From the NCBI GenBank assembly GCA_001938485.1, contig MQRK01170560.1, positions 76,142 through 128,441 on the forward strand: 52,300 nucleotides of DNA. The letters run 5' to 3'. This document shows positions 13,017 through 41,368 of this stretch, piece after piece (position 1 is the first letter of the stretch; each line of letters opens with the position of its first letter). A program made the position numbers and the translations under genes. The notes beneath the pieces are model-generated. The model was not told the origin of the DNA. It saw nothing but the letters and a program-made list of their open reading frames with translations, and searched no databases. The stretch comes from Girardia tigrina (taxonomy: Eukaryota).

Positions 13017-13094
13017 CAAAGTATTTAAAGTTGGTATTTTCTTAAAATAAAATTTTATATCTAATTGACTTTTTTTTCTATTTGGATAGTAAAT

Positions 13095-13240
13095 CGCTTT
13101 ATGTAATTCGGTGTTTTGTAATTCGCTGTTTTGTAATTCGCTGTTTTGATGATTCGCTGTTTTGATGATTCGCTGTTATGTAATTCGCTGTTTTGGGATT
13201 CGCTGTTATGTAACTCGCTGTTTTGTAATTCGCTGTTATG
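13095..13240 (-). repeat. MULE right subterminal 15-bp tandem array (inverted)
   Basis: About 10 copies of ATTCGCTGTTwTG. Confidence 0.95.
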
Positions 13241-15024: not shown

Positions 15025-15260
15025 CGAAGGGAATGGGCTTTACAAGCTATTTACAACAATGAGGTTTGAGCTATACCTCGGAATCCACTCCGACACCCGA
15101 CTCATAGTTGTGCCAAAGCGGGGACTTCATAATATGTAACTGTTGCTCGTCGCGAGCTTTTCTAATGAACGACAGGAATGGCCCGACTAATTTCAATGAC
15201 GAAGAGTCACGATAAGAACTCAATTCCTTCTCGGAATAGACAATATCGTGGCGACCCATT
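15025..15260. mobile_element. Putative TA-flanked MITE interrupted by the Polinton (right TIR at 32399-32411)
   Basis: TA-CGAAGGGAATGGG (15023-15037) versus CCCATTCCCCTCG-TA (32399-32413); 12/13 inverted match. Confidence 0.5.
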
Positions 15261-15539
15261 AGAAGTATAGAAATTACTCGGATTGATCAGACCCTTCAAA
15301 AATAGCGTTTTTCGCACCTTTTTGAGAATTATTAAAAATCGATATTTTTTATCCATAAAACGTATATAATATTCAATAAATCTAATATTTTTATCGATAA
15401 AACACTATAAAAATTCAAAAAATCGAAAAAAATATTGATAAAACGTATACAATATTCAAAAAGTCATATTATTTATATCAAAAATGAGAACTCGAAGAAA
15501 AAAAAAGTGGATACCAAAAAGCCATACCGTAGTATGGCT
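15261..15539 (+). repeat. Polinton left TIR
   Basis: AGAAGTATAGAAATTACTCGG...GTATGGCT; reverse complement of 32123-32398 with few differences. Confidence 0.97.
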
Positions 15540-15560
15540 ATTTGGTATAATATTATTTTA

Positions 15561-15896
15561 TTAAAATGTTCTATAATTAACAACGTAATCAAATACTCGA
15601 TTACGTTTTATTAAATATTTTTTCAAATATTTATCTTTAATATTATAAAATACAGATTCATCAACAAGATCTTCAGAAAAAATCTGTTTTTCTTCATCAG
15701 TAAATTCTGTATTTCTTATCACTTCGAGTTCCCAAATAAGTTTTTTGTAAACTTCAAGTGATAATTCTTCTTCCTCTTCCTCTTCTTCATTATTATTTAC
15801 AAATATTATCAAATTATTAAAATAAATAATTTGATTATTATTATATATTTCTTCCAAATCATACTCATTTAAAAAATTAAAATTTTTACAGACCAT
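15561..15896 (-). CDS. Polinton hypothetical acidic protein (111 aa)
   Basis: AAAATG start, divergent from the next gene, ends next to the TIR. Confidence 0.6.
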   Translation of the reverse strand: MVCKNFNFLNEYDLEEIYNNNQIIYFNNLIIFVNNNEEEEEEEELSLEVYKKLIWELEVIRNTEFTDEEKQIFSEDLVDESVFYNIKDKYLKKYLIKRNRVFDYVVNYRTF

Positions 15897-15926
15897 TTTT
15901 TAAAATCTATTTTAATTTTAAAGAAA

Positions 15927-16448
15927 ATGAATGAAGAAATTTTTAAAAACAATATTGATTATTTAAAGGGGTTAAGTGATTTATCACTTGATGTTATTGA
16001 AAAAGATGTGAAATATATTGTTAAATCTACTTTTTGTGTTAATAATAAAAAAATTATTTTGGATTATTTGAAATTGAAAAATGAAACAAATTTGAAACAT
16101 TCAGAAATTTGTAAAAGATTAAATATTTCAACTTATCGATTTAATCGTATAATGAAAGATAATGAAATTGAATCGTTTTATCGTCATCCTGTTCCAACTC
16201 AAAAATCAAGAAGTAAGAAAAAAACGGAAAAAATAAAAACTGAGGAAAAACCGAAATTGAAAAGAAAAAAATCGAAAAAAGAAGAAGTTGAAATTGGAAA
16301 AGGAAAACTCGATATCTCTCCTGAATCCGAACTCGAATCTGATCATGAATCCGAATCTGAAAAAATTAAAAATGAAAATCGTGAAAGAATGTTGAAAATA
16401 TTAGAAGAAAGAAATTCAAATTATCTTAAAGAAAATGGAACTTGCTAA
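15927..16448 (+). CDS. Putative HTH DNA-binding protein with basic NLS-like tract
   Basis: LKHSEICKRLNISTYRFNRIMK resembles an HTH; K-rich region follows. Confidence 0.65.
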   Translation: MNEEIFKNNIDYLKGLSDLSLDVIEKDVKYIVKSTFCVNNKKIILDYLKLKNETNLKHSEICKRLNISTYRFNRIMKDNEIESFYRHPVPTQKSRSKKKTEKIKTEEKPKLKRKKSKKEEVEIGKGKLDISPESELESDHESESEKIKNENRERMLKILEERNSNYLKENGTC

Positions 16449-16944
16449 AATAAAAAATAAAAAAAATTTATCAAAGTTTATAACAAGAGCTGAAAAGGAA
16501 TATGATAAGATGAATCTGAAATCTCAAGCGCATCAAGGACGAAAACAAATCACTCAAATATTCCAATTGAAAGGAGAGCTCATAGATATGAAAAGTAAAT
16601 GGTTTACCGCGGTAGATTATTGTGCTGAATTGGCAGAAGAAGTGGAAAAAAAAGATGAAGATATCCTGTTTTTAAATAATGTAATAGATACAAAAAATAA
16701 TCAAATAGATATGTGTTTGAAAGAAATTGGAAACGATGATAAAGACAAACAAAAGAAATATGAGGATTTGATAAAACAACAAAATGATATATTGGACAAA
16801 TCTCTAACTGTTCCAAAATTCAATAATCGAAAAACTATTCTTTCAAAAGTGTTAAATAAAATGTATAATTGGTCACCAGAAGAATGTGAATTTATTTCCA
16901 CTTTAGAAAAAATTAATGGTATAAATAATGATCTACCGGATTGA
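16435..16944 (+). CDS. Polinton hypothetical coiled-coil protein (169 aa)
   Basis: AAAATG start overlapping the upstream ORF; heptad-like composition. Confidence 0.65.
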   Translation: MELAKIKNKKNLSKFITRAEKEYDKMNLKSQAHQGRKQITQIFQLKGELIDMKSKWFTAVDYCAELAEEVEKKDEDILFLNNVIDTKNNQIDMCLKEIGNDDKDKQKKYEDLIKQQNDILDKSLTVPKFNNRKTILSKVLNKMYNWSPEECEFISTLEKINGINNDLPD

Positions 16945-17091
16945 TTTAATCAAGCTTTATTTAGCTTAAATTGAAAAAAAACGCGGTACTTTTACTCTAT
17001 CCATTCGCAATAAATCCCTATCTAAACGATAGCGATATACTAATTTTAATATTCGAATGGAAAATTCATCCTCGAGAAATTAAAATTATTT

Positions 17092-17376
17092 TTAAATAAA
17101 ATCATCAATATTATTATCTTTACATTTTTCCTTTATTTCATTGGTTTCATTTTCAAGATCAATAATCTTATTTTTTAACATTTCTNNNNNNNNNNNNNNN
17201 NNNNNNNNNNNNNNNNNNNNNNNNNNNNNNNNNNNNNNNNNNTTAATAAAATAATTTAAATTTATTATAGCATTTTTATATACTCCTATCAAAATTTCTT
17301 TATCCTTTATAATCTTTTCTTTTGTTATTTGTATACCTATTTTATCATTATCAGATTTTAAATTATTTTTATTCAT
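17092..17376 (-). CDS. Small hypothetical protein (~94 aa, spans a gap)
   Basis: AAAATG at 17376 (MNKNNLK...). The longer ORF call merely reads through the repeat. Confidence 0.45.
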   Translation of the reverse strand: MNKNNLKSDNDKIGIQITKEKIIKDKEILIGVYKNAIINLNYFIXXXXXXXXXXXXXXXXXXXXEMLKNKIIDLENETNEIKEKCKDNNIDDFI

Positions 17377-17403
17377 TTTCTTTAAAAATATAATAGAATT
17401 TAT

Positions 17404-17484
17404 AAATTCCCAAATCCAAATCCCAAATCCCAAATCCAAATCCCAAATCCAAATCCAAATCCCAAATCCCAAATCCAAAACCCG
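17404..17484. repeat. AAATCC/AAATCCC tandem repeat (GGGATTT on the minus strand)
   Basis: About 12 units of 6-7 bp between divergent genes. Confidence 0.95.
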
Positions 17485-17647
17485 AAAGTTGTATCGTGAT
17501 TTGAAAAAATCACAATCTAAACATTTATTTATTAACAAATTTTTTTTCGACTCGTTCATTTTCTTTAAAAATAATTTGAAAATGGAAAGCAAATTTTTTT
17601 TTAAAAAAATTCGCGTTCTTTTCACCAAAAATTCGAAAAATAAAAAA

Positions 17648-18559
17648 ATGCCGAAGGAAAAACTGAATATTTTAAGTATGTACGAGTCAAAGTTTAAAAA
17701 CAAATTATTCCCAAAGAACTTTAGACTGCTAATAGTTGGTGAGTCGGGATGTGGAAAAAATGTTTTACTAGCGAAAATGTTATTGGAGGATAATTTTTTA
17801 GATTTTAATAATTTAATATTTTATTCCACAACTATTGATCAACCAGAATTGAAAGTGATTGCAAGTGGTTTTCGATTTGAGGACGGATCATCTTTAACAA
17901 AAATGGGAATACGCGATATCTTTGATAAACAAAATATGCTCTTATCCATGATAAAAGAGGAATTAGGTAATGATTCTGATAAAGATTATATTCCTCCTCC
18001 GGAATATCTGGTTTATGCGTATAAAAGATTTATTAATAATAAAAATAATATTGATAAATCAAAATACTTGATTAGAGATCCTGAGAAATCCATATCCGTT
18101 CTATTTTCTTCGGATCCCAATCAAATCGTCGCTTGCGACTCGCTACCAAAAGATGCAAAGAATCTCATTATTTTCGATGACGTGGTGAATCTGTCAGATC
18201 AGAAAATAATGAAATCGTATTTCACCAGAGGACGCCATAATAATTGTAATACGATATACATCTCCCAAACTTTCTACGGATTGGATAAGCATTCTATCCG
18301 GAATAATTCCACTAGATTCATTTTTTTCGAATTAGGAAAAAGAGATAAATCTTATATCTTCTCTGATCTCTTACCCAATAGCGAAAATATCAATGAATAT
18401 CAGCGGGAAATCATTCATCACTGGCAGCGGAAAAAATATAATTATATTTATTTCGATCGGACTGAGAAAAAAATTTATAAAAATATTTTTACTGAAGAAG
18501 AAATAGCGATTGATAATCCGAACATGCACTCAGATACGGAATTAGATGAAAGTGATTAA
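17648..18559 (+). CDS. A32/FtsK-like DNA packaging ATPase
   Basis: Walker A GESGCGKN, Walker B LIIFDD, RGRH, ISQ..IRNN; likely start MPKEK at 17648. Confidence 0.95.
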   Translation: MPKEKLNILSMYESKFKNKLFPKNFRLLIVGESGCGKNVLLAKMLLEDNFLDFNNLIFYSTTIDQPELKVIASGFRFEDGSSLTKMGIRDIFDKQNMLLSMIKEELGNDSDKDYIPPPEYLVYAYKRFINNKNNIDKSKYLIRDPEKSISVLFSSDPNQIVACDSLPKDAKNLIIFDDVVNLSDQKIMKSYFTRGRHNNCNTIYISQTFYGLDKHSIRNNSTRFIFFELGKRDKSYIFSDLLPNSENINEYQREIIHHWQRKKYNYIYFDRTEKKIYKNIFTEEEIAIDNPNMHSDTELDESD

Positions 18560-18691
18560 TGATTTTATAAAATAGTTAATAGCATATCATGGAATACACA
18601 TTAAAAATATTATTGTTCTTTTCTAACCGTTTTCCTTTATTATCATGTCTACAGAAATAGCTTGATAGTATTGGAAATTTTTATTAAGAAA

Positions 18692-19633
18692 ATGATGATT
18701 ATTAAAAAAGAAGGCGGTGGAGGCGTCTTTGATAGCGCGAAGCGGGTATCCAAAGGCGGTGGAGACTTCGATTCTCGAAGAGCAATCGGAGGTGACATTC
18801 AACAATCTATGGGAAATTTTGCAAAATATATCCCTGGATTTATGAAAACAAAATACGGAGAACTGCATTTACCAGGTAAAAATTATTGTGGTCCTCTAAC
18901 AAGATTGGATATCCGATTAGATGAAAATGATCAACCAATCGGCGAAGATAATAAACCAGTAGATGGATTAGATGAAGCCTGTTATAAGCATGATATCGCT
19001 TACAGATCTGAAGATTTACGAGATCGGCATTTAGCTGATATAAATTTGATTCATGATATCAATCAACTTCAAGATCTGTCTTTACGCCAAAAATTCGAAA
19101 GATTTCTCATAAAAACAATTATGAAAGGTAAAATCGCATTTGGCGGTGCCGTTGATGATAATAAAATAGATAATAAACAATTAGCCAAGGAATTACATAA
19201 AGAACATAAAAGAAATAAAGACTTTCTTCGAATAAATGTTAAATCACTGAATCGGATTTGGTCTGCTGACTTGATAACTGTTGACGCTAAAGAAGATACT
19301 GAAAATGGAGTCGTTGCAACAACAATAACAAAATCGGGACAAACCAGAAAAATTTGGAAATATTATATTTTAACAGTTATAGATATTTATTCTCGTTATG
19401 GTTTTTTCCGTTTTCTTCCCAATAAAAAATCTGAATCGATAATTCAAGCTTTCATTTCAATTCTTACTGAATTAGGAAATACTGAATTACCAATTCCAAA
19501 ATATTTATGGGTTGACCAGGGAGCTGAGTTCACAAACAAGGAATTCGATAAAAAATTCCTAAAAGCTAATAATATTAAAATGTATTTTGTAAAGAAAAAC
19601 CTGTTTTTATTGAAAGATTCAATCGAACTTTGA
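18692..19633 (+). CDS. PLA2 (parvovirus VP1u-like) fused to the N-terminal/core part of a retroviral-type integrase
   Basis: LPGKNYCGP and DEACYKHDIAY, then in frame LAKELHK, WSADL, VIDIYSR, WVDQGAEF. Confidence 0.92.
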   Translation: MMIIKKEGGGGVFDSAKRVSKGGGDFDSRRAIGGDIQQSMGNFAKYIPGFMKTKYGELHLPGKNYCGPLTRLDIRLDENDQPIGEDNKPVDGLDEACYKHDIAYRSEDLRDRHLADINLIHDINQLQDLSLRQKFERFLIKTIMKGKIAFGGAVDDNKIDNKQLAKELHKEHKRNKDFLRINVKSLNRIWSADLITVDAKEDTENGVVATTITKSGQTRKIWKYYILTVIDIYSRYGFFRFLPNKKSESIIQAFISILTELGNTELPIPKYLWVDQGAEFTNKEFDKKFLKANNIKMYFVKKNLFLLKDSIEL

Positions 19634-20097
19634 AATCTGAAATCTATAAACTATTTACCGAGAAAGGGGAGAAAGTTATCACTGAGTTGGAAATGCAAAA
19701 AATATTAGAGAATTATAATAATAGAATTCACAGCTCTATCCGTCAAATTCCACATGATGTAATGTTCAATGATGCGATTCCAGAACCAAAACCACAAAAA
19801 TTACCAAAGAAAAAAATTAAGCCAAAATTCAAAGTTGGAAATCGAGTTCGGGTATTCGAAACAAAATTATTCAATGGAGATAAACCTGAAGGCACTCGTA
19901 ATAAAAACCAGGAACGGAAATTACAGACTTTTAAAAAAGGTTATGAACCGAAATGGACTCGTGAAATTTATGTAATTTCAAAAGTTTTGGATCATGAATA
20001 TCCTGTAACTTATAAACTGATAAATCCTACAACTGAAATACCTAAAGAACTATTTGGTCGGTTCTATGAAGCGGATTTACAAAAATCAAAATTTTAA
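19591..20097 (+). CDS. Integrase C-terminal part (-1 frame relative to the upstream ORF)
   Basis: KEKPVFIERFNRTLK (catalytic Glu), YNNRIHSSI, KFKVGNRVR, FKKGYEPKWTRE, GRFYEADLQ. Confidence 0.9.
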   Translation, partial: KEKPVFIERFNRTLKSEIYKLFTEKGEKVITELEMQKILENYNNRIHSSIRQIPHDVMFNDAIPEPKPQKLPKKKIKPKFKVGNRVRVFETKLFNGDKPEGTRNKNQERKLQTFKKGYEPKWTREIYVISKVLDHEYPVTYKLINPTTEIPKELFGRFYEADLQKSKF

Positions 20098-20102
20098 AGA
20101 AA

Positions 20103-21536
20103 ATGGAAACAAGTTTTGAAAAACCAATAAATCAATTAACCTCAGGAATGATTCCGTTGGGAATTTTAGATCTTGATAACAATAAGGAATTTAGTCACGT
20201 TTTGAAAAAAACCGATGTAATAAAACTGGCGCCAACCAGTGGATCACAAGCATACATGAATCAGAATGGAACTCTGGTTTATCAGCTCTCCCAAACCACC
20301 GATCCGATAGATATTTGTAATGCTAAACTGGTTTATGATATTGAAATAAAAAACGGGGATGAACATTCAATTCTTGAAACCAACTTCTTCCCTAAATTAT
20401 TTTCATGCATGTCATTAAAATTAGGTAACTATGTCGTGGAATCGATAAATAATCCTGGAGTTGTATCAGATATGTTATTATATGTCTCTAAAGATAGAAA
20501 CTATTTACCCTGCGGAGAAATAACGGATTTTATTCCTGATCATTATGAAATGACATATGGAGAAAAAATAGCTGCGGTATCATCAGTACCATCTACAAGT
20601 AAAAAAATTATTGATGAAGAAGATGAAGAGGATACTCCCGGTTCGAGCGGGGGTACTCTCAATACAAAAGAAATTCCAGCTGGTCTACGATATCAAAATA
20701 TTGGAATAGAAATTCGTAAAAATCAATTTAAACATAATAGATTCAAAGGTGCTTTCTCACTGAAACATCTTTTCGGATTTCTGCAAAATTATAACCGAGT
20801 TATTTACAATATTCTCCTGGAATTTACAATGGTTCGAAAAATAGATCATAAAAATATATTTTACAACAAAAATTGTACCAAATGTGAAGTACATATAAAA
20901 TCCCTGGAACTGCATATGAATCAATTGGAATTGAATATCGATTCTTATGGACGAATAATTGAACGATTAAATCAGAAAGATAAACCGATTTATGTGGATT
21001 TCCTTAAACGTCTCTCAATGGAGTACTCATTAACATCCGAAAAATCATTTAACTGGAATGCTGCATATCTGAATTATTTACCTCGATATATTTTCATTGG
21101 AATGAAACTGAAAGATTCAGATTATAAATCGAATAATTCTCGATTTTTTATGGATAAAGAAGAATTCTCAATTCAAATAAAACTTAATAATACCTATTAC
21201 CCAATCCAACCAATGGAAAATGTAAAAGCAAATCGGAATTTCTATGATTTATATAATTCATATGTTCAATGCTGCCGTGGATTTCAAGACAAAGCTCCAA
21301 TATTATCATTGAAAGATTGGAAATCTCTATATCCAATTATATGTTTTGACACTTCGGATATTGATAAAACTTTATCCGTTAACAATGTTACCGTAACAAT
21401 AATGATTAAGAAATCTGAAACGTTTCAACCAAAGATGTATTGTGTAATTTTGGAAGAAGCAAAAATAAAAATGACTCTGCGGGGATCACAAATTACCATC
21501 ATAGAACCATTAAAAGGATCTGTTGATAAGAAATAG
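20103..21536 (+). CDS. Major capsid protein (double jelly-roll, PY/hexon-like)
   Basis: 477 aa, beta-rich; LKHLFGF, PRYIFIG, NNTYYP and YPIICFDTS motifs typical of Polinton MCP. Confidence 0.88.
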   Translation: METSFEKPINQLTSGMIPLGILDLDNNKEFSHVLKKTDVIKLAPTSGSQAYMNQNGTLVYQLSQTTDPIDICNAKLVYDIEIKNGDEHSILETNFFPKLFSCMSLKLGNYVVESINNPGVVSDMLLYVSKDRNYLPCGEITDFIPDHYEMTYGEKIAAVSSVPSTSKKIIDEEDEEDTPGSSGGTLNTKEIPAGLRYQNIGIEIRKNQFKHNRFKGAFSLKHLFGFLQNYNRVIYNILLEFTMVRKIDHKNIFYNKNCTKCEVHIKSLELHMNQLELNIDSYGRIIERLNQKDKPIYVDFLKRLSMEYSLTSEKSFNWNAAYLNYLPRYIFIGMKLKDSDYKSNNSRFFMDKEEFSIQIKLNNTYYPIQPMENVKANRNFYDLYNSYVQCCRGFQDKAPILSLKDWKSLYPIICFDTSDIDKTLSVNNVTVTIMIKKSETFQPKMYCVILEEAKIKMTLRGSQITIIEPLKGSVDKK

Positions 21537-21683
21537 AAAAAAAATTCTGCTTCCTTTCTATGAAAAATAAAATTTTGGATCCCCGAAGGTTAATAATTTT
21601 TTTCTCAGCGAGAACAAAAATTATTATTACCAAAGGTTTGATAAATATTTTATTTTTCACAAAAAATAAAATATTTATCAAAA

Positions 21684-22370
21684 ATGGCTCCGAAAACAGA
21701 TGCTTTAAAAATACGAAAATTGATAGATACTCAAACTCCCGGTTTGATTCGTGTGAATGGAAAGGAAATGTATTTAAATCGGGAAATGTTGAAAAAGATT
21801 AAAGATTTGGAAAAAAATGGTGGAGAGATCGGTGGATATTATCACAGTGGTGGATTATTGCCACTTATCCCCGCTATAATCGCTGGTTTAACTACTCTTT
21901 TCACAGTAGGAGGAGCAGCTGCGGGAGTAGCCGCTGGAGTATCAAAAACTGTTTCAAATGCTCGTGAAGCACAGAAGATGCAGGCGGAAAAAGAGAAAAT
22001 AGATATTGAAAAACAAATAAAACAAAAGGAACTTGAAAAAATGAATACACCGGTGGTTCCACCAACGGGATCGGGATTACGGAAATCAAAAGGAAAAGGA
22101 TTACTTGGAGAATTTGTACCTAGAACTATAATGTCGAAAATGGGAATAAAAGATATAGATGAGGGAGAAGGGTTGTACTTGGATGATTATGTTGGAAAAG
22201 GAATACAAAAATTTTTTCGTGAACAAATAAATCAATCGGATAAAGATCCAAAATCGAAAAAGGCTCTATTGAATAAAAATAAAAAATTGGGAGGGAAATT
22301 GAAATGTCATTTCATGGGAAAGGGATTATATTTGGAACCTTGGGATCCGAATAATCAGAATCGGATATAA
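21684..22370 (+). CDS. pX-like core/membrane-active virion protein
   Basis: GGLLPLIPAIIAGL..GGAAAGVA hydrophobic segment, coiled coil, repeated GxG[LI], C-terminal GKGLYLEP. Confidence 0.8.
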   Translation: MAPKTDALKIRKLIDTQTPGLIRVNGKEMYLNREMLKKIKDLEKNGGEIGGYYHSGGLLPLIPAIIAGLTTLFTVGGAAAGVAAGVSKTVSNAREAQKMQAEKEKIDIEKQIKQKELEKMNTPVVPPTGSGLRKSKGKGLLGEFVPRTIMSKMGIKDIDEGEGLYLDDYVGKGIQKFFREQINQSDKDPKSKKALLNKNKKLGGKLKCHFMGKGLYLEPWDPNNQNRI

Positions 22371-22372
22371 AA

Positions 22373-23497
22373 ATGAATGAACATCAAATACATTTTCAAG
22401 AATTACAAAAAAGTATTCAAAGAACTTTAGTAGCAGTTCAAGAATATAATCGTCAAGAATTTGAATACAAAGCTGGTATATCCGATTTTCAAACATCAAT
22501 GTCTAAAATGTTTCAACCTTTAATGAGTGGATTACAAGGTCCTATTACTGAACGGATAACATCTCTCAAGACTAAAGTTATAAAATTAGAAAACGATCTC
22601 AAACGATTTATTGAAGTCGATATAAAAAATTATGATAATGTGAAATCCAAATCTTTTTTTGATCAGTATCAACAGGAATATTTATTAATCCATCAGGAAT
22701 TAGCTCCGATAATGCAGGAAATGATTGAGAAATATCCTCAAGATAAGGAATTTATCACCAGTCATCATGAGGTAACGAAAAAATTATTAGAAGAGTTGGC
22801 ACAGAAATTGGGAACGAAATTCGATTCTCAATTATCTCAAGCTGGTCCCTTTTTGGAAATATTCTTTGATACAAATTATTATGTAAATTTCAAATCTTCA
22901 CTAATGTTGCAACCAACGTTTGGAAGAAATGCCGAGGGAAAACAATTTATGACATTCAATAAATATACATTTATTCTCATGAAAGAGGGAGAAAAATATT
23001 ATTTCGTGCGAAATGATAATCGGGTTCGAGTAGAGCTTGATGATATTTTTAATAATATCCTAATTGGGAATTATGAAATTATTTTCAATAAAAGTTATAC
23101 TATGGAAGAAAAACATACATCATTCGATAAGTATTTATCATTTCTATTAAATAATGGAATAAACGCTCGAGAAAGAAATTTTTATTATACTAAACTTTGT
23201 TTCGATGCTTTTAATAAAGCTGAAGGATTAGTAGGAGAATTTGCACGACCACTAGAACCCACGAAAAAGGAAAGAAGATCATCATCATTACCACGGTTAC
23301 GTCCACGAAAAGGGACAGGAATACCCTCTGATCCGATTTCATTGTTTTCATATTTATATAAATATATCGCTGCAAAGAAGGCTGGTCATGATGGTTTGGA
23401 TGATAATATTATTGATATTATGAAGAAATTAAGACGAAAAAAATTATTATCAAAAGAAAAACAGGAGGAATTAATGAAACGAATTTTCGATAAATAA
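22373..23497 (+). CDS. Conserved Polinton protein of unknown function (374 aa)
   Basis: C-terminal KGTG..SDPISL..IAAKKAGH..IIDIMKKL resembles the DPxEL..AGN motif of Polinton ORFs. Confidence 0.75.
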   Translation: MNEHQIHFQELQKSIQRTLVAVQEYNRQEFEYKAGISDFQTSMSKMFQPLMSGLQGPITERITSLKTKVIKLENDLKRFIEVDIKNYDNVKSKSFFDQYQQEYLLIHQELAPIMQEMIEKYPQDKEFITSHHEVTKKLLEELAQKLGTKFDSQLSQAGPFLEIFFDTNYYVNFKSSLMLQPTFGRNAEGKQFMTFNKYTFILMKEGEKYYFVRNDNRVRVELDDIFNNILIGNYEIIFNKSYTMEEKHTSFDKYLSFLLNNGINARERNFYYTKLCFDAFNKAEGLVGEFARPLEPTKKERRSSSLPRLRPRKGTGIPSDPISLFSYLYKYIAAKKAGHDGLDDNIIDIMKKLRRKKLLSKEKQEELMKRIFDK

Positions 23498-23551
23498 GGA
23501 TGAATTCTAACGAAATGGGAATTTGTTTACAAATTACTGATTTCGTTAAAA

Positions 23552-24373
23552 ATGGGTGAACGAAGTAGATTTTCAACGACTTTTACAATATCATCCGCGA
23601 AATCGGAAATCAAAGTCCAGTTGCCTGTTGAATTGAATTTGAATCCTAATTTTAAATACGAAATCGGATTGGTCTGGTTTTCAACTTATAATACTGTTAC
23701 AAATGTTACTGAAACGAATAATGAATTTACTTTGGTGTATAATGGAAAAGAATTTCCAGCTGATAAAAAATTCAAAAATGTGAAAAAGAAAGATGATACT
23801 GAATCTGTTTATGTAGAATTAAAACTGAAACCAGGATCAAAGGGATACAAGGAAATCAATGAAGAAATTGAAAAACTGACTCAAGGAGCAATCAAAGTGA
23901 AAACTGATGAGAAAACCGCCAAGTCAATAATGTTTATTTCCGATGGTTTTGAAGTGGAATATGAAGATAAATCATTCCTGCATTCGATGCATGGATTTGC
24001 AGGTAAAAATATTGTAGATCCAATAAAAGGTCTCGAATCGAAATTTACTTTTCAGATAACGGATATAAATATTTGTAATATCGATTGTAATATTGCTAAT
24101 GGTGGATACGTTTCGAGCGAAGATGGTGTGGAAAATAAAAGTATTAACGAAAGCGTGCGTAACTCTAATATTATTTATTCGTTTCCGGCGTTTACAGTTC
24201 CAATCGGATACAAGATTTTAGAGCGGCCAGCATTTGTAACTTACTATCCCGTTTACATTTATCAAATAAATGATTTCACTGTGAGAATTATTGATAATAA
24301 GGGACGTCTAATAGATTTCAAAAATGAGAAAATAAATATGTGCTTGCGGTTGAGACAAATAATGGAAAAATGA
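23552..24373 (+). CDS. Minor capsid protein (penton-like, PX)
   Basis: YEIGLVWFSTYNT..NV, IDCNI..GY, IIYSF..VPIGYKI.E.P, YYPV, IIDNKGRLIDF. Confidence 0.9.
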   Translation: MGERSRFSTTFTISSAKSEIKVQLPVELNLNPNFKYEIGLVWFSTYNTVTNVTETNNEFTLVYNGKEFPADKKFKNVKKKDDTESVYVELKLKPGSKGYKEINEEIEKLTQGAIKVKTDEKTAKSIMFISDGFEVEYEDKSFLHSMHGFAGKNIVDPIKGLESKFTFQITDINICNIDCNIANGGYVSSEDGVENKSINESVRNSNIIYSFPAFTVPIGYKILERPAFVTYYPVYIYQINDFTVRIIDNKGRLIDFKNEKINMCLRLRQIMEK

Positions 24374-24457
24374 GAAGAATTATATTATAAAAATGATAGA
24401 ATTTGGTGACCCGAAGGGTAAAGAATTCTATCTTGCTATAAAAATTTTTTTATAAAA

Positions 24458-24937
24458 ATGATAGAATTCTTTACTTTGGAAGACATAATGATGATGTTCG
24501 GAGTTGATACTTCAACGAATGTGCAACTTGAAGATTGGGCAAAAAAATTAAAAATTGAAATACAAGTCTTGATGGCGGATGAGGTTGATGAAAAATTAAA
24601 ACAGAAAAAACTATCAATAATAAATTACCAGGATTCAGATGAGGAGGGAAGTCATTGGGTAGGATTTTATAATGGGGATAAAGAATTTGAGAAGGAATCT
24701 TTAAAGGAACCAGTATCTTACTACTTTGATCCGTATGGAATAGAGCCTTTACCTGATTTTTATAAATGTATATATAATAGCGTACAAGTACAACCCTTTG
24801 GAACGAGACTATGTGGTCAATTGAGTTTATATTTTTTATTTAAAATGAATCAGTGTGTATGTGGTAATAAGGCACAAAAGTTTGATGATATAATTGAGGA
24901 AATGTTAGATTGTTTATGGCCTGAAACTCTTTTATAA
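24458..24937 (+). CDS. Adenain-like maturation cysteine protease
   Basis: GSHWV (His), YYFDPYG (Asp), QVQ..LCG (Gln, Cys). Confidence 0.93.
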   Translation: MIEFFTLEDIMMMFGVDTSTNVQLEDWAKKLKIEIQVLMADEVDEKLKQKKLSIINYQDSDEEGSHWVGFYNGDKEFEKESLKEPVSYYFDPYGIEPLPDFYKCIYNSVQVQPFGTRLCGQLSLYFLFKMNQCVCGNKAQKFDDIIEEMLDCLWPETLL

Positions 24938-24992
24938 TAGTATTGTAATTGTAAATATTTTTGTTCTCTAAAAGAAAAAAATATTTACAAAA

Positions 24993-26726
24993 ATGAATAC
25001 TTATATTCCTGTGAATAAATTGGGAATGATGATGCAGATTGGAGGAATGAAAGAAGAGAAAATAAATGAAAAAATTGAAGCGAGTAAACGGATAATATTT
25101 TCAGAATCGGATAGGAGATATATGAATACAGAAAAAATTAATGAAACTATAGAGGTGAATAATAAAAAGTTAGATAAGATATTTGTGAATGAGCAGGGAA
25201 ATGATGATGTTGAATCAATGCGAGTAAAAAATTCATTAATTGTTAAAGATAAAGATATTTATCAGGAAATAGATTCAATAAATAAATTTAAAAAATTTGT
25301 CATCAATCCATTGAATAAAAATGTTATTGAGAATACGAAAAAGATTGATAATATTAAAGAGAATATTAAACAGAATATTCTTGAAAAAATTAATGACGAT
25401 ATTGAAAAGATAAAACAGAATATTCTTGAAAAAATTAATGGGGATATTGAAAAGATAAAACAGAATATTCTTGAAAAAATTAATGGTGATATTGAAAAGA
25501 TTAAACAGAATATTCTAGAAAAAATTAATGGGAATATTAATGAAAAAATAAAAATAATAAATAAAGATATTCTGGAAGTGAGGAATTCGATAACGGAGGA
25601 GAAAAACCTATTTGGTAATTTGAAAATAAGTGCTAATATTAGTTATTCAGAAGAAATAATATTTTATGAAGATAAAATAAAAAAATTAGAAAAATCTATT
25701 AAATTTATAGCAAAAATAACAAAAAGAATTAATTTCTTTATCCCAAAAGTAAATGAGAAAATAAAACGAGAAGAAATTGATGATGCAACCTTACAAAAAA
25801 ATAATATTGAGAATATAATTAAAAATTTAACATTAAAACATTTAATTATATTAACTTTTTTATTATATTATGGTCTTGATAAAGAAAATGAAATTAATTA
25901 TTATTTCATGAAAAGTGAAAAATATGAAGAAATGAGAGAAAATTTCTATATTATAAATAAAGAATTATTGAGTGCGATAAATTATAGGAAAAATAAATAT
26001 ACTGAAAATTATAAGGATGAAGAAGATTATAAGGATAAAATGGAAATAACTGATTTAATTAGAATAAAAGATCGTGATAAAGAAATTTTTACATTTGATA
26101 AAAATTTTATAGAAAAAGATGATTTCTTTAAAAATAATTTTTTTACTTTTTCAATTTACATTCAGAAATTAAAAGAAAAAATAAAAGAAAAATATTATAA
26201 AGAAATTATTTTAAAGAAAAGAATTGAAAAATTAAATTCATCTGATTCTGAATCGATGTATATAAATTTCTATTTGAAAAATAAAGTGGAAAGACTGGAA
26301 GCTCGATTGCGGACATTGGAGCAACATTTGAATAAAAATACCCATGAAATAATTGATCATAGGGAACAGACAAATGAAATTATTTTTCAAAAATTTGTTA
26401 ATAAATTCATTTCGAATTCATTGTTGAATGTTGAAGAATCAAAAATTATTGAATACACATTTGTTGAAATATTTGAAATGCAAATATATAAATTTATTGT
26501 AAATCTGTATGATAAAAATTATAAAATTGAAAAAGTTATCCAGTTGACAAATATTAATTTATATGGGAATTGGGAAATTAAGAATAAAAAATATTATGTT
26601 ATATTCAATAATACGATTAATAAGTATTATGTTTTTCAAAATTTTATATTTTATTATTATTTCTTTTTCAAATGGAAATATGTTGTAAATACTTTCGAAG
26701 TAAAAAAGGAATTGATAAGAAAATGA
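24993..26726 (+). CDS. Polinton 577-aa coiled-coil protein with 15-aa repeats
   Basis: Long ORF with IKQNILEKINGDIEK repeated ~4 times; function unknown. Confidence 0.75.
   Translation: MNTYIPVNKLGMMMQIGGMKEEKINEKIEASKRIIFSESDRRYMNTEKINETIEVNNKKLDKIFVNEQGNDDVESMRVKNSLIVKDKDIYQEIDSINKFKKFVINPLNKNVIENTKKIDNIKENIKQNILEKINDDIEKIKQNILEKINGDIEKIKQNILEKINGDIEKIKQNILEKINGNINEKIKIINKDILEVRNSITEEKNLFGNLKISANISYSEEIIFYEDKIKKLEKSIKFIAKITKRINFFIPKVNEKIKREEIDDATLQKNNIENIIKNLTLKHLIILTFLLYYGLDKENEINYYFMKSEKYEEMRENFYIINKELLSAINYRKNKYTENYKDEEDYKDKMEITDLIRIKDRDKEIFTFDKNFIEKDDFFKNNFFTFSIYIQKLKEKIKEKYYKEIILKKRIEKLNSSDSESMYINFYLKNKVERLEARLRTLEQHLNKNTHEIIDHREQTNEIIFQKFVNKFISNSLLNVEESKIIEYTFVEIFEMQIYKFIVNLYDKNYKIEKVIQLTNINLYGNWEIKNKKYYVIFNNTINKYYVFQNFIFYYYFFFKWKYVVNTFEVKKELIRK
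25365..25540 (+). repeat. 45-bp coding minisatellite, ~4 copies
   Basis: ATwAAACAGAATATTCTwGAAAAAATTAATG..GATATTGAAAAG. Confidence 0.93.
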
Positions 26727-27370
26727 GTGACGAATTGAAAACTTCTGTGGAAGACACTGTTTCGTATCCTGATTTGTACATGGAAGAATTTATGTTAAAA
26801 TATAAACAAAAAGAGGAAACTCCCGAAAATTATAAAAAAGAATTGAATACTTTACATGTGCAGTATTTCAAGAAAGATTTGGAATATTTAAGTGAGCATA
26901 TTGCCCATTATCAAAAATTACATAAGAGATGGAAAAGAATTGCTATAACAGTAAAATATTGTAATGGGATATTAACTTTTGTTGGATCTGTTGGAGCAAT
27001 AATTGTTGTTTCCATTTCAACTTTGGGAACTTTAACAATTCCATTAACTGCTGCTTTTGCTGGATTGGGAGTTTTATCAAATATTGGAGATAATGGCGCT
27101 AATTTAATAACTTTGAAAAAATTGAAAAAATATCGAAATTATTTACGGGAATTGGAAAAGACCAATGATGAATTATTTATGTTTCATAAGAAAGCATTGA
27201 GTGATAATTTGATAACTGATGACGAGTTAAAAATGAGTAAAGATATTTTGGAGAAGTGTAAAATAAATATTGGAAAATTAAATGACGGACAAAAAAGAGA
27301 AGATAAAACGAATACGTTAATTACAAATGATCATTTGGAAAAGTTGAGAACTTTATTAGAGAAATTATAA
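26723..27370 (+). CDS. Membrane-hairpin protein (possibly GasderminX-like)
   Basis: ATGA overlap with the upstream stop; ~45-aa hydrophobic hairpin between basic helices; KALSDNLITDDE motif. Confidence 0.7.
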   Translation: MSDELKTSVEDTVSYPDLYMEEFMLKYKQKEETPENYKKELNTLHVQYFKKDLEYLSEHIAHYQKLHKRWKRIAITVKYCNGILTFVGSVGAIIVVSISTLGTLTIPLTAAFAGLGVLSNIGDNGANLITLKKLKKYRNYLRELEKTNDELFMFHKKALSDNLITDDELKMSKDILEKCKINIGKLNDGQKREDKTNTLITNDHLEKLRTLLEKL

Positions 27371-27391
27371 TAATTTAAAATAATAAAAAAA

Positions 27392-27652
27392 ATGGAGAAA
27401 GAAAAATTTATTTGTGATGTATGCAATTTTAAAGGTTTAATACAAAATAAACAGAGACATTTGGATAGTAAAAAACACCATGTAAAATCGAACTTTGAAA
27501 AAGTTTATCAAGCTGTTAATTCTAATAATGAATATATACCGAATACAGAAAATAATAGTAATTCCGATACTGAATATATACCGAATACAGAAAATAATAA
27601 TAGTAATACCGATCCTGATTATATACCGAGTAATTATTCCGATACTGAATAA
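27392..27652 (+). CDS. Small C2H2 zinc-finger protein with repeated acidic tail
   Basis: CDVC..KQRHLDSKKH; EYIPNTENN repeats. Confidence 0.75.
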   Translation: MEKEKFICDVCNFKGLIQNKQRHLDSKKHHVKSNFEKVYQAVNSNNEYIPNTENNSNSDTEYIPNTENNNSNTDPDYIPSNYSDTE

Positions 27653-27810
27653 AAAAAATTTAAATGACTTTAAATAATCTAATGTTTTTATTAATTTGTT
27701 AGTCTGATAAATAATTTTATTTTTTAATTTCACAATGGCAATAAAAATAATAACCAATAGCTATTTGGCACCCGATTTTTTTTCCAATGCTATAATATTT
27801 TTTAACAAAA

Positions 27811-30800
27811 ATGAGTATAAAATTTTTACACAAGATAAGTTTAAGAAGGAGATCGCGAAAATTTGATATTTGGGATGAGGAGAGTTTAAATTTAGAGTGG
27901 TTATTCTGTGAGACTGAAATAAATATTAGAGAGGATATCGATTTCAGTATTGATGTTAATGATGATGAGGAAATTGAAACAGATACCGAATCTAATAATA
28001 TTCCGCCAAATATTATTGGAGGAGATATCGATTTCAATTTTGAGGATGATAGTAACGATGAAGATTTTGTTATAAAAATAAATAATAAAAAAAAATTAGA
28101 CGAAGAGGAAATGAGTATAGATAATGATTGCGAATCTTTAGATGGAAATAATATTGTAAATGAAAATCCATTGTATTGTACATATTGTAGAAAACATTTT
28201 AAAAATAAATCTGGAATTGGTTCACATAATAGAAGTATACAACATATAAGAAACGTAAATCTTCAAAGAATTGAAGGAGAAGGAATTGGAGAAGATGAAA
28301 ACATGGAAATAGTTGAAAATGACGAATGTTCATATCTGATAAATCGGTTTCCAAAATCAGAAAATAAATTTGTTATTGATAAAGAGGATGTAAAATATTT
28401 AATTAATATTTTAAAAAATCAGAAAAAGAAAATGCCCTATAAATTAGAATTATCCGCTTCTGTTATTTATGAAAGGAAAACACAAATTGATCCCAATACA
28501 AAGACTTATGAAGAATGTTTTCCAGTATTTAAAAATTCAAAGTCAAAAACTATACGAACGAGATCGGATTTACAGTCATTTGTTAATGAATCATATATGG
28601 AGGTAAATGAAGGAATCAGTGATCATATGCAAGGACCTTCTGATTTATCAGTGAAACGGGTAGAAACTTTAACACTAATACGGATGAATTATACAAATGC
28701 TATTTCAGGTGTTTATTTTAAATTTCCTAAAAATATTGAAAATTCTCATACGATTATTAATATTCAAAACCAGGATGATAAATGTTTTCTCTGGTGTTTC
28801 ATTCAATACCATAAATGGGAAGAAGTGAGAAATTTAATTAATAGAAATAGAGTTTCTATTTATAAGAATATATATTATGAGAATAAAGAATATTATGATT
28901 TAATATTTAAAGATATTAAATTTCCTGCAACACTAGATGATTTTAAACAATTCAATAAACAACAAACTGATGATTATAATCTTGTTAATATTTTTAATTG
29001 TAATGAAAAAGGGGAATTAAATTGTATTCTACTTTCACATTTAAATACTAAAGGATTTAATATAATTCAATATACAAAAAATAAAATTTCACATTTAGTT
29101 TATTGTAGAGATTTAGCAACTTTATTNNNNNNNGATAATAATGGAAATAGAAAAGAATTATGTTTAAACTGTTTATGTTTTTTTACAACAAAAATAGGAT
29201 TTAAAAAACATGTGGAAAATTGTTTAGAAAATAAACCAACGAAAGCGGTATTCCCAAAAAAGGAATATTATTATTTTGAAAAATGGGAATATAAGAATAG
29301 AGTTCCATTTGTAATCTATAGTGATTTTGAAGCTGCAAATTATCGATTAGAAAATTTTAAGAATGAATTCATGGAAACATCAACAACAGATTTTATTAAT
29401 TTCAATGAGGTTACTCCCCCAGAGATTAAAGATACTGAAAAAATAAAATATGATGTTAGGCAGAAAGCAATTTCAAATGGAGTATATTTTCATTCGGATA
29501 TTCCTGAAATTGAGGAAAGTTATTATCGAGAATTCATTGGAGAAGATGTTATTACACAATATATTAATTATATAATGGAAATTAATGAAAAATATACTAA
29601 GATATTTGCAGAGAGAAACATTCCTTTGGAAATGACTCCAGAACAGGAAGAAGATTTTCAAAATGCAGAAGTTTGTCATTATTGCGGAGAAAAATTTGAA
29701 GAATATAAAGTTAGAGATCATAATCACTTAACAAGGGAATATAGAGGAGCTTCGCATAATATTTGTAATCTGAATGCAAAACAAATTAATTTCATACCAC
29801 TATTTTTTTTCAATGGAGCGAAATACGATACGCATTTATTCTTTAAAGATTTGTTTATTAAATGTAATGAGATGAATATTGAAACAAGCGTTTTACCAAA
29901 AACATCTGAAGATTATATAAGTTTTCAAATCGGATGTATAAGATTTTTAGATGCAAGAAAATTTGGAGATGGATCTTCACTACAAAATTGTACAAGCAAA
30001 TTAAAAAAAGAAGAATGTAAGATTTTATCTGAAAATAATTTATTATTTTTATCAAATCCTCATGAACTAGATCCAACAAAACATATATATGCTCCTAAAA
30101 AAGGAATATTTCCATATAGTTATTTAACTGGAAATAACTATCAAGATATTAAAAAGAAATTAAAAGAAAAGAGATTACCTCCACATTGTGAATTTTTTGA
30201 TATATTATCACAGAAAAATATTTCCGAAGCAGAATATAAAATAGCAAAAGAGAATTGGAAGGATTTGAAATGTAAAAATTTACAAGATTATATGATGCAG
30301 TATATGAAAACAGATGTAATATTATTGGCTGACTTCTTTGAAAATTTTCGTAAAATGTGTATGGAATATTTTCAGATAGATCCATGTTATGGATTTTCAA
30401 CTCCTGGTTTAACATGGATGTTTGGTATGAAATTTACTGGTATAAAATTAAAATATTTTAAAGAAGATACATATGATATGTTATTATTTTTTGAGGAAGG
30501 AACAAGAGGAGGATTTTCAGGGGTATTAGGAAATAGATTTGCAAAAGCTAATAATCCACAAGTTGATAAGAATTTTAATGAGTATATTTCCACTTCAATT
30601 GATTTCTTTAGACAGTTTTATAATGATTATATTGAATGTGAAAATAAGGAAAATTTTGATTTTGAAATATATAAAACGGATAATTGGGAATATAATTTAA
30701 TTATTGAAGAATTTAAAATGATAAAAAATAAAGAGAATTTTAATTTTAATAAATTTTTCCGTGAAAGTTATATATTCTATTTAGATGCGAATTCATTATA

Positions 30801-32022
30801 TGCGGCTGCAATGACATATTTTTTACCAACAGGAGAAATGAGATGGTGTAAAAGATTAACATATAGAAAATCGAGAGAAAACAGTAATTATGGATATGTT
30901 TATGAAGTGGATCTGGAATATCCAGATTCCATAAAGAAAAAATCATTCTATTACCCCTTTTGCCCTGAAAGAATTATTCCGAAAATCCCAATAGAAAGAA
31001 TGAGTAATTATGAAAAAATGGTTTTCCCACAAAAATATTCAACAAATACAGAAAAATTAACACTGAATTTTCTCGATAAAGAAAATTATATTGTTGAAGG
31101 ACGAACTTTGGACTTTTATTTAGAACAAGGGATTAAAATAAAAAAGATACATAGGAAATTGAAATATGAAAAATCTCCATGGTTGAAACCATATATCGAA
31201 TTTAATATTGAAAAACGAAAAGAAGCTAAACAAAAAAAAGATTCATTTGGTGATTTCTTCTTTAAGTTGTTGAATAACGCTTTCTATGGAAAAACATTGG
31301 AAAATGTGCGAAATCATTGTAATATTAAAATAGTAAATAATGGAAAATATTTTAAAAAATTAGTTGGTAAACCAGAATTTAAATCTATACATCCTTTCTC
31401 AAAAAATCTTTGTGCACTTGAAATGTTTAAATCAAAAATATATTTTAATAAATTTAATTATATAGGGTTTACAGTTTTGGAAATATCTAAACTGATTATG
31501 TATGATTTCGCTTATAATACTCTTCATCGAATTTGGGATTTTGAATCTGATAAAATTCAAATGCACTATAGTGATACCGATTCATTATTTGTGCAGATAT
31601 ATGATAACTTGGAAAATATAAATAATAAATTAAAAGATTATGTACATCCAACTGATTTAGGGAAATTTAAAGATGAATTGGAAAGAGGGCAATTTATTCA
31701 ATATTTATTAGCTATAAAATCTAAAGATTACTCCTATAGAATAATAGAAAATTTAAATAAATCAATTGATAAGAATAAGAATAAAGGGGTAAAAAAAGAT
31801 GAAATAAATTTTGAAAATAGAATAAATGTTTTATTTAATAATGAAACTATTGATATAAAAAATTATAGTATAAAATCAGTAAACCATGAATTAAATATTA
31901 TACATACAAATAAAAAAGGAACTTCTGGATATGACAATAAAAGACGATATTATAAAAACTCTATAAATTCTTTTCCGCATGGATATAATCCTCAAGAATT
32001 ATTCGATACTTATAACTTATAA
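27811..32022 (+). CDS. Protein-primed family B DNA polymerase (pPolB)
   Basis: ExoI YSDFE, ExoII FNGAKYD, ExoIII YMKTDV; PolA YLDANSLY, PolB KLLNNAFYGK, PolC YSDTDS. Also C2H2 finger, DDKCFLWC (OTU-like) and an EndoVII/HNH insert. 7-N gap near 29127. Confidence 0.97.
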   Translation: MSIKFLHKISLRRRSRKFDIWDEESLNLEWLFCETEINIREDIDFSIDVNDDEEIETDTESNNIPPNIIGGDIDFNFEDDSNDEDFVIKINNKKKLDEEEMSIDNDCESLDGNNIVNENPLYCTYCRKHFKNKSGIGSHNRSIQHIRNVNLQRIEGEGIGEDENMEIVENDECSYLINRFPKSENKFVIDKEDVKYLINILKNQKKKMPYKLELSASVIYERKTQIDPNTKTYEECFPVFKNSKSKTIRTRSDLQSFVNESYMEVNEGISDHMQGPSDLSVKRVETLTLIRMNYTNAISGVYFKFPKNIENSHTIINIQNQDDKCFLWCFIQYHKWEEVRNLINRNRVSIYKNIYYENKEYYDLIFKDIKFPATLDDFKQFNKQQTDDYNLVNIFNCNEKGELNCILLSHLNTKGFNIIQYTKNKISHLVYCRDLATLXXXDNNGNRKELCLNCLCFFTTKIGFKKHVENCLENKPTKAVFPKKEYYYFEKWEYKNRVPFVIYSDFEAANYRLENFKNEFMETSTTDFINFNEVTPPEIKDTEKIKYDVRQKAISNGVYFHSDIPEIEESYYREFIGEDVITQYINYIMEINEKYTKIFAERNIPLEMTPEQEEDFQNAEVCHYCGEKFEEYKVRDHNHLTREYRGASHNICNLNAKQINFIPLFFFNGAKYDTHLFFKDLFIKCNEMNIETSVLPKTSEDYISFQIGCIRFLDARKFGDGSSLQNCTSKLKKEECKILSENNLLFLSNPHELDPTKHIYAPKKGIFPYSYLTGNNYQDIKKKLKEKRLPPHCEFFDILSQKNISEAEYKIAKENWKDLKCKNLQDYMMQYMKTDVILLADFFENFRKMCMEYFQIDPCYGFSTPGLTWMFGMKFTGIKLKYFKEDTYDMLLFFEEGTRGGFSGVLGNRFAKANNPQVDKNFNEYISTSIDFFRQFYNDYIECENKENFDFEIYKTDNWEYNLIIEEFKMIKNKENFNFNKFFRESYIFYLDANSLYAAAMTYFLPTGEMRWCKRLTYRKSRENSNYGYVYEVDLEYPDSIKKKSFYYPFCPERIIPKIPIERMSNYEKMVFPQKYSTNTEKLTLNFLDKENYIVEGRTLDFYLEQGIKIKKIHRKLKYEKSPWLKPYIEFNIEKRKEAKQKKDSFGDFFFKLLNNAFYGKTLENVRNHCNIKIVNNGKYFKKLVGKPEFKSIHPFSKNLCALEMFKSKIYFNKFNYIGFTVLEISKLIMYDFAYNTLHRIWDFESDKIQMHYSDTDSLFVQIYDNLENINNKLKDYVHPTDLGKFKDELERGQFIQYLLAIKSKDYSYRIIENLNKSIDKNKNKGVKKDEINFENRINVLFNNETIDIKNYSIKSVNHELNIIHTNKKGTSGYDNKRRYYKNSINSFPHGYNPQELFDTYNL

Positions 32023-32122
32023 TTTTTTATTTAAAAAACAAAATTTTTTATTTTAAAAAAATAATTTTTATCGTGAAAACATAATTTTTATTTTAAATTA
32101 CTTATATACTTATAAACCAATC

Positions 32123-32398
32123 AGCCATACTACGGTATGGCTTTTTGGTATCCACTTTTTTTCTTCGAGTTCTCATTTTTGTTATAAATAATATGACTTT
32201 TTGAATATTATATGCGTTTTATCAATATTTTTTTCGATTTTTTGAATTTTTATAGTGTTTTATCGATAAAATATTAGATTTATTGAATATTATATACGTT
32301 TTATCGATAAAAAATATCGATTTTTAATAATTCTCAAAAAGGTGCGAAAAACGCTATTTTTGAAGGGTCTGATCAATCCGAGTAATTTCTATACTTCT
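32123..32398 (-). repeat. Polinton right TIR
   Basis: Inverted copy of 15261-15539. Confidence 0.97.
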
Positions 32399-34860: not shown

Positions 34861-35420
34861 ATGCAAAGTCGCCTAAGATTCCTCGACGCAGAGTTCGCCA
34901 AGGATGACCACAAAATGTTCCATATGGTGTCTGTCGTTGTTATGGATTATAATAAACAAATCATCTTGCGTACACTAGCAAAGCCTCGTGCACATATAGA
35001 TGAATGGTGCACTGGTTGCCAAGGCAAACCGAGACAGATATCATAGGACAACCCGACGAGTACGAAGTAATAAACACAATTCACCGTCATCTCTTCGGGA
35101 ATATATTGGTAGAGCATGACTTGCAAATGAAAATCAGAGGATTAGCATTGCCAGTAGAATCATTTTTAAGCATTAGGGATACAGAAGCAACACCCGTCTT
35201 CCAGAAATTTAAAACACCACGGAAAGGAGATTTCTACAAACTGAAAACCCTGTCTAGACATATCCTTAAAAGAGATATTCAATCCAGATATCACATTGCA
35301 GAAGAGGACGTATCGGCAGTATTGGATATTTATAAAAAAGTCGAATCGTATTGGGAAGATACAATATCTTCTACAGACGTCGAGAATATCTTTACACATA
35401 TTCCCAATTCACCACCCTAA
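34861..35420 (+). pseudogene. Intronless DEDDh exonuclease (REX4/ISG20-like), frameshifted
   Basis: LDAEF (ExoI), ILVEHDL (ExoII, degenerate), IRDT, LKTLS..IL..DIQ, HIAEED (ExoIII); frameshift near 35027. Confidence 0.85.
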
Positions 35421-41284: not shown

Positions 41285-41368
41285 ATAAAAGCACTCTTTA
41301 ATTTTCTTTTCTCAAATAAGCACTCTTCAATCTTCTTTCCTTGACTCAAATAAGCACTCTTTAATTTT
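41285..41368. repeat. ~30-bp tandem repeat x3
   Basis: AAATAAGCACTCTTyAAT core. Confidence 0.8.

Follow-up and report, generated by a model that had tools for sequence, protein, structure and literature searches.

A phospholipase A2–integrase fusion gene in a Polinton of Girardia tigrina and its possible processing in virions

The element and its fusion gene

The DNA analysed here, a stretch of 52,300 nt from Girardia tigrina (GenBank assembly GCA_001938485.1, contig MQRK01170560.1, positions 76,142 to 128,441 of the forward strand; 'the window', to which all positions refer), carries at 15261-32398 a full-length Polinton/Maverick of 17.1 kb (intact vertebrate elements average 16.9 kb; PMC8097293). 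An initial annotation, made from the sequence of the window, had read it as a recently inserted, near-intact endogenous virus that may still form particles, and missed the feature with which we are mainly concerned here, the fusion of a phospholipase A2 (PLA2) to the integrase.

The ends agree with that annotation. The target-site duplication is perfect (CCCATT, 6 bp, at 15255..15260 on the left and 32399..32404 on the right; chance of an exact 6-mer duplication 1.3e-4 at window composition), the element begins with AG and ends with CT, and its terminal inverted repeats (TIRs) of 282 nt (15261..15542, plus strand, with internal subrepeats of ~41 bp) and 279 nt (32120..32398, minus strand) share 273 identities over 279 aligned sites, differing by 6 mismatches and 3 gap positions. 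With a TIR divergence of 6/279 a recent insertion is plausible, if undated. The interior between the repeats is 94% coding and holds, as had been claimed, about 15 packed open reading frames (ORFs), namely 15 that start with ATG and, in addition, the second part of the integrase, the one gene whose frame is broken. Because an AAA-ATG context is so enriched at their starts (14/15 ORFs, compared with 59/569 ATGs within the element), these ORFs are likely to be real genes. Two runs of N interrupt the element, 57 N in ORF 17092-17559 (O4) and 7 N in the gene whose product is a DNA polymerase B of the protein-primed type (pPolB; 29127-29133), so that these two frames are open only as assembled.

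By its genes the element is a Polinton/Maverick (Polintoviricetes): the markers pPolB, rve integrase (frame-broken), double jelly-roll (DJR) capsid protein, A32-like ATPase and adenain-like protease are all present, and the penton member of the gene set is unconfirmed. The 'full virion module' of the initial annotation therefore stands for capsid, ATPase and protease, while its penton is only a candidate and the 'near-intact' state is qualified by the broken integrase.

The upstream frame of the fusion gene (18692..19633, plus strand) encodes, in order, Gly-rich repeats, a PLA2 domain (residues 57-130), a GG linker (residues 151-152) and the first part of the rve core; the downstream frame (19579..20097, plus strand) encodes the third catalytic Glu motif and the C-terminal part, and relatives align across both frames. 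Both domains are matched in Pfam (PF08398, phospholipase A2, E 5e-10; PF00665, rve, E 1e-9). The structure model (mean pLDDT 78, pTM 0.48) consists of two separate domains, a helical PLA2 that matches a rice PLA2 (Z 8.0, rmsd 3.8, 93 residues) and an integrase core that matches a retroviral integrase (Z 11.8, rmsd 1.7, 79 residues). Among the 50 fold matches listed, the viral ones were either integrases or PLA2 proteins of parvoviruses, densoviruses and entomopoxviruses, with a query TM-score of at most 0.30, and the PLA2 profile matches adeno-associated virus (AAV)-type capsid proteins (E 0.005). The Gly-rich repeats ahead of the PLA2 (18709-18794) are shorter in other contigs of the family, by whole codons where the letters are known, and further GG motifs flank the PLA2 on its N-terminal side.

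Distribution of the fusion

We examined the best 150 of 1,090 relatives. Both parts of the fusion were covered in 33/150 by tblastn and in 32/150 by profile, and both Pfam domains were found in half (22/44) of those picked from the 150 by length and extent. Seven of 30 Atlas matches fall in clusters with both domains (the three clusters listed have 184, 111 and 72 members), and the domain pair is already present in the automatic names of Atlas clusters. Of 39 metagenome loci, 15 encode the two domains within a single open frame; 7/26 PLA2-bearing loci, of which only 13 reach 2.3 kb, have on the same short contig a gene for a protease, an ATPase or a capsid protein. One locus, L014, carries homologues of the capsid, ATPase, O8, O9 and penton genes (see below) in a different order. 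Across 29 aligned sequences, conservation of the PLA2 His, Asp and Tyr and of the downstream Asp is 90% or higher. As read from these sequences, the phospholipase–integrase fusion spans the whole lineage.

A possible exchange of the integrase at the junction was considered from two comparisons. The identity of the element to L014 is 62% in the PLA2 and 42% in the integrase core, the latter being near the bottom of the 41-69% spanned by 18 comparable pairs, though still within it. In a tree of 42 rows (5 left out) the integrase core of the window sits on a long branch (1.18) and is weakly placed among stand-alone integrases.

Some relatives differ in arrangement. In L014 a Cys-rich, HNH-like gene (1470-2075, minus strand) lies between the PLA2–integrase and capsid genes, and P0137 has a Cys-rich, HNH-like stretch resembling it ahead of a shortened PLA2. 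P0138 keeps the PLA2 together with a longer N-terminal integrase region and a chromodomain-like tail, and perhaps represents an early or separate form of the fusion.

The break in the integrase frame

The change of frame falls between ~19579 and ~19610: alignments with intact relatives follow the upstream frame as far as ~19585 and the other frame from ~19579-19610. We take the first two acidic catalytic motifs to lie upstream of the break and the Glu motif to lie downstream. Intact relatives, one of them 54-55% identical, run through the region in a single frame, and 27/39 metagenome loci match both integrase parts, all 27 in one frame and 26 open across the junction. Considering that all 27 are in one frame, the break is best put down to a fault in this copy or to an error of assembly, and not to a feature of the lineage. 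Since the break removes the third catalytic residue, the copy would need sister copies to integrate its progeny; it would still make phospholipase, capsid proteins and polymerase. Judged on its sequence, this copy is near-intact but unable to integrate alone, and with its integrase frame broken it lies outside the definition of an 'intact' Maverick in PMC8097293, by which no core ORF may contain a stop or frameshift.

A programmed frameshift was considered and rejected, given that no stable RNA structure was found downstream (z +1.55) and no split is seen in relatives. The wider possibility, that the integrase is alive and the break is either an assembly error or a designed ribosomal frame shift, is helped by the N gaps which the assembly has inside the element, by the position of the break in short A/T runs and by the open state of the rest of the element. 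We nevertheless think it quite improbable: all 27 loci, like several intact proteins, read across the junction in a single frame, so that no programmed shift is conserved in the lineage, and the RNA behind the junction folds worse than 190/200 shuffles. The stretch 19693-20094, downstream of the break, gave no Pfam match and no chromodomain match.

The junction motif and a model for processing

The GG at the PLA2–integrase junction (19142..19147, plus strand) is, from its occurrence in relatives and its place in the model, a predicted protease site. In the model it ends a helix (residues 131-149) and is followed by a linker (residues 153-159) with pLDDT below 50. A GG or GxG motif is present at this junction in 27/32 fused relatives, compared with 4/117 control windows in the integrase part. 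From the motif to the integrase ELH the median distance is 11 residues (measured in 25/32), and stand-alone integrases begin 8, 10 and 15 residues ahead of ELH (n=3; predicted starts may be incomplete). In mavirus, according to PMC6048507, the sites cut by the protease are GG|X and GX|G, and virions contain the integrase together with a hydrolase in two fragments that has a potential GK|G site; PMC4642659 puts forward that the lipases of Polintons go into particles and assist entry.

We suggest that the PLA2–integrase precursor would be packaged into particles and cut at the glycine linker during maturation by the capsid protease of the element itself, and that the cut would free both the PLA2, as a membrane-breaching entry enzyme, and an integrase ready for the next cell. 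Considering that the conserved junction motif, the low-confidence linker, the mavirus sites, the proposed packaging of lipases and the ELH spacing all fit, a packaged precursor split by protease into entry enzyme and integrase is, on balance, the reading we favour, with packaging, cleavage, enzyme activity and particle formation alike being steps that we infer here.

Several observations weigh against this proposal. The same GG/GxG motif ends unfused PLA2 relatives (13/18 in one set and 30/34 in another), and being as common there it may be a structural end of the PLA2 domain and not a site retained because of the fusion; 5/32 fusions have no GG/GxG in the scored window; and the P4 residue is often Lys, unlike the adenain motifs given in 10.1101/341131. 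A short linker is equally expected from simple read-through fusion of neighbouring genes. In the calcium loop of the PLA2, only 11/26 fusions retain the third Gly, which is Leu here, and for this reason the activity of the PLA2 is uncertain. Moreover, the cleavage and the particles are here predicted from genes, the penton gene is unconfirmed, and the evidence for selection on the family is weak when synonymous changes are set against transitions (p 0.09; see below).

The main alternative is that the fusion stays uncut: the glycine motif would simply be where the PLA2 module ends, and the PLA2 would remain on the integrase to tag it for packaging, to anchor it in a membrane or to stand in for an N-terminal domain. 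The motif is as frequent in unfused PLA2s, which in many cases stop shortly beyond it, and is absent from some fusions; both observations would suit this explanation, as would the finding that most fused integrases have no separate N-terminal region before ELH. We hold it to be the less likely reading, however, since stand-alone integrases (P0242, P0233, P0206 and L028) start shortly ahead of ELH and do without such a domain, the model has two independent domains with a low-confidence linker between them, and the motif agrees with the sites mapped in mavirus (PMC6048507).

The family to which the element belongs

Ten of the 20 sequencing runs listed hold part of the element, with at most 0.44 of its words in any. 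Four runs were aligned, two of which (X1 and X2) are from one organism and one study. Related contigs numbered 19,012 in X1 and 15,290 in X2; by identity those of X1 divide into 4,050 at 99% or above, 6,338 at 95-99%, 7,250 at 90-95% and 1,374 below 90%. Summed contig depth in X1, which is not a copy number, was 5,300-165,000 inside the element and 229 in the first flank bin. These data indicate that the element is one copy of a large and diverse family, and not the lone survivor as which it had been treated.

The best-supported small indels are non-coding or in frame in 10 of 12 cases (83 others unlisted), and 14 of the 30 ORF substitutions listed (1,259 others unlisted) are synonymous, with p 5e-4 against all changes and 0.09 against transitions. 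The synonymous count lends weak support to selection on the family. No empty insertion site was found among the 15 listed of 350 joints. A leaf-litter metatranscriptome (X7) yielded 196 contigs over 27/30 bins, and a run that is RNA by guess (X4) yielded 1575; we rejected these contigs as proof of expression, given that DNA carry-over of a high-copy family would look alike.

Such a family could spread only inside cells, as a self-synthesizing transposon that makes no particles, with its virion genes and PLA2 kept for another use or as recent relics. High abundance is what transposition would be expected to give, and there was no free-end signal in the contig data, which cannot show ends. We consider this unlikely, because the genes for capsid, ATPase and protease have open frames and unaltered catalytic residues amid decayed neighbours, the indels largely spare the reading frames as described above, and distant relatives, L014 among them, have this module too. 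The broader proposal, that a widespread but undescribed Polinton lineage builds virions with a protease-split PLA2–integrase polyprotein and spreads as integrating animal viruses, in a host whose family is very large and recently active, is one that we put forward tentatively, as a possibility still somewhat short of probable.

Relation to known systems

The element is most similar to the group 2 or Alpha adintoviruses, for example the Mavericks of Spodoptera Sf9 cells, with which, as they are described in PMC5803895 and PMC8502044, it has in common a pPolB with an EndoVII/HNH insert, an rve integrase, an A32 ATPase, a DJR capsid protein, an adenain-like protease, a PLA2 of parvovirus type, TIRs and a target duplication of 6 bp. 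The HNH insert, the presence of PF03175 on the closest matches and the PLA2 point to this placement, which is made by domain content and not from a reference tree, with criteria taken from PMC5803895, PMC10748475 and 10.64898/2026.06.19.733378 and from the labels of Fig. S2 of PMC8502044. A Beta/group 1 label for the polymerase was withdrawn in the light of PMC5803895, PMC10748475 and 10.64898/2026.06.19.733378. The differences are that the closest polymerase match of this element is only 39% identical, that the PLA2 of the described elements is a gene of its own (CAP or PLA2X, in PMC8502044 and PMC5803895) whereas here it forms the integrase protein's N-terminal half, and that the integrase of those elements, as there described, ends in a chromodomain, of which there is none here. 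Among the double-domain relatives a Chromo match was found in 2/22. Since the adintovirus integrase is defined by a C-terminal chromodomain in PMC11071296, the element is, for want of this domain, not an adintovirus in that strict sense.

In the mavirus virophage (PMC6048507) a related protease makes GG|X and GX|G cuts and virions carry integrase and a predicted hydrolase; however, integrase (MV02) and hydrolase (MV13, alpha/beta fold) are separate genes there and one fused gene here, and mavirus depends on a giant virus and a protist host. The PLA2 belongs to the same domain family (PF08398) as that of the parvovirus VP1 unique region and has fold matches to parvovirus and densovirus VP1, but in VP1 it is tethered to the capsid protein and here to the integrase.

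Retroviral integrase enters particles on a structural precursor, Gag-Pol, and is released by the viral protease. The arrangement proposed here would be alike in logic, with processing only predicted for this element; carrier and protease are unrelated, and the element has no reverse transcriptase. If the proposal is true, the fusion would be a DNA-virus counterpart of Gag-Pol that brings in a ready-made integrase together with the entering genome, and it suggests how integrase could get into a new nucleus before viral gene expression.

Near-intact Polintons are known and common, and this copy is in itself an ordinary near-intact, integration-defective one. It has long been asked whether the Polintons of animals make particles, and to our knowledge no virions have been seen. 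The fusion bears on whether they are infectious, since an entry phospholipase joined to an integrase through a protease-type linker would make little sense for a purely intracellular transposon, and a host with a very large and diverse family is a good place to seek particles. We found no description of a PLA2–integrase fusion in the literature searched, which included the available portions of PMC3671162, PMC4642659, PMC11296320, PMC11131425, PMC11161782 and PMC10748475, with subscription papers, Repbase and most supplements outside its scope.

Other genes of the element

Pfam, NCBIfam and PHROGs were scanned with all ORFs except O4, and 9/15 ORFs (O1-O4, O8, O9 and O12-O14) have no confident family match there, in line with the earlier statement that about half have no recognisable function. 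In searches of viral contigs, prokaryote genomes and phages no relatives were found.

At the left end, O1 (15561..15896, minus strand) is an acidic ORF of 111 aa with an AAA-ATG start and no match in the three libraries; O2 (15927..16448, plus strand; 173 aa, basic) has only a sub-threshold KilAC match (E 0.019) and is possibly, on this weak indication, a DNA-binding protein; and O3 (16435..16944, plus strand; 169 aa) has nothing above curated cut-offs. O4, which contains the 57-N gap, lies on the minus strand at 17092..17559 and its true start is likely to be near 17376, after a CCAAATC tandem repeat. The motif TTAAAGAAAATG is a possible shared start or promoter signal of the ORFs, which have their starts between 15561 and 27811; it occurs five times in the element and nowhere in the remainder of the window. 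A second TTAAAGAAAATG in O4 is at 17385 on the minus strand.

The genome-packaging ATPase of A32/FtsK type (17582..18559, plus strand; PF04665, E 3.6e-9) precedes the fusion gene and has homologues in the metagenome loci L001, L009, L010 and L014. The DJR major capsid protein follows the fusion gene (20103..21536, plus strand; PF21738, E 2.3e-15) and has three homologues at 34-40%, all without the acidic insert that is present here; the insert (20552-20754) is also skipped in some contigs of the family. No relatives of the capsid protein were found in the metagenome contigs searched with it.

Downstream of the capsid gene, O8 (21684..22370, plus strand) is basic and rich in glycine motifs (10 GG/GxG), with hydrophobic windows from residue 55, after a GG, and with a homologue in L014 (E 8e-8); it is likely to be a protease-processed core or membrane-active virion protein. 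O9 (22373..23497, plus strand; 374 aa) is conserved in L014 (E 3e-7), had no match in the Atlas, and yielded neither a fold nor a family in the fold and family searches. The candidate minor capsid protein (23552..24373, plus strand) is 32% identical to an L014 protein encoded beside the capsid and ATPase genes, and from its position and this homologue it is probably the penton, as yet unconfirmed; its structure model was unusable (pLDDT 32), and PDB, Pfam, other libraries and fold searches gave no support.

The adenain-like cysteine protease (24458..24937, plus strand; 159 aa) has its residues H66, D91, Q112 and C119 invariant in 5/5 aligned sequences, and the best solved matches of its profile are adenovirus proteases (E 0.013). 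O12 (24993..26726, plus strand; 577 aa), with 15-residue repeats encoded by 45-nt direct repeats at 25339-25575 and no family match, is possibly a fibre. O13 (26672..27370, plus strand) appears to be a membrane protein whose hydrophobic core resembles SLATT (SLATT_1, at E 0.042 short of the cut-off; hydrophobic windows 96-112), and its start is likely to be at 26723, where AAA-ATG stands at the second Met. O14 (27392..27652, plus strand; 86 aa) has a zinc-finger-like start in its sequence and nothing above cut-off.

The gene for pPolB (27811..32022, plus strand; 1403 aa) encodes a vOTU-like Cys/His pair, Exo I-III, an HNH/EndoVII insert and Pol A-C. All exonuclease and polymerase motifs lie in one frame, and an alignment of 13 sequences shows these, as well as the HNH and vOTU-like motifs, to be conserved. 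The conserved Cys motif and His are what we take to be the vOTU pair, a domain label that has no library match. There are 99 homologues, the closest 39% identical, and six close ones align in one frame across the 7-N gap. Among the pPolB matches P0089, P0021 and P0029, one Musca domestica protein combines PLA2 with pPolB and two aphid proteins combine rve with pPolB, according to precomputed domains; these pairs may be gene-prediction merges or other fusions.

Surroundings of the element

The neighbouring autonomous transposable elements are decayed, as had been stated: the retroelement, the Mutator-like element and the mariner and RNase H pieces are fragmented or contain stops. Flanking elements of these types suggest that the host is an animal. 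The fragmented non-LTR retroelement (3885-9243, minus strand) has a Ulp1 protease, a reverse transcriptase and a C-terminal part in several frames, and a second C-terminal fragment of such an element lies at 41365-41970 on the plus strand; this part is presumably a restriction-like endonuclease (NeSL/R2-like). The Mutator-like element (MULE; 11295-13264) has inverted ends made of 15-bp subrepeats and a transposase in three pieces. Of the smaller decayed pieces, the ORF at 35004-35828, which has no Pfam match, is one that we assume may be Penelope-like, 43912-44628 is a mariner transposase, 47349-48122 is an RNase H of long terminal repeat (LTR) type and 48406-48820 contains a 154-bp fold-back.

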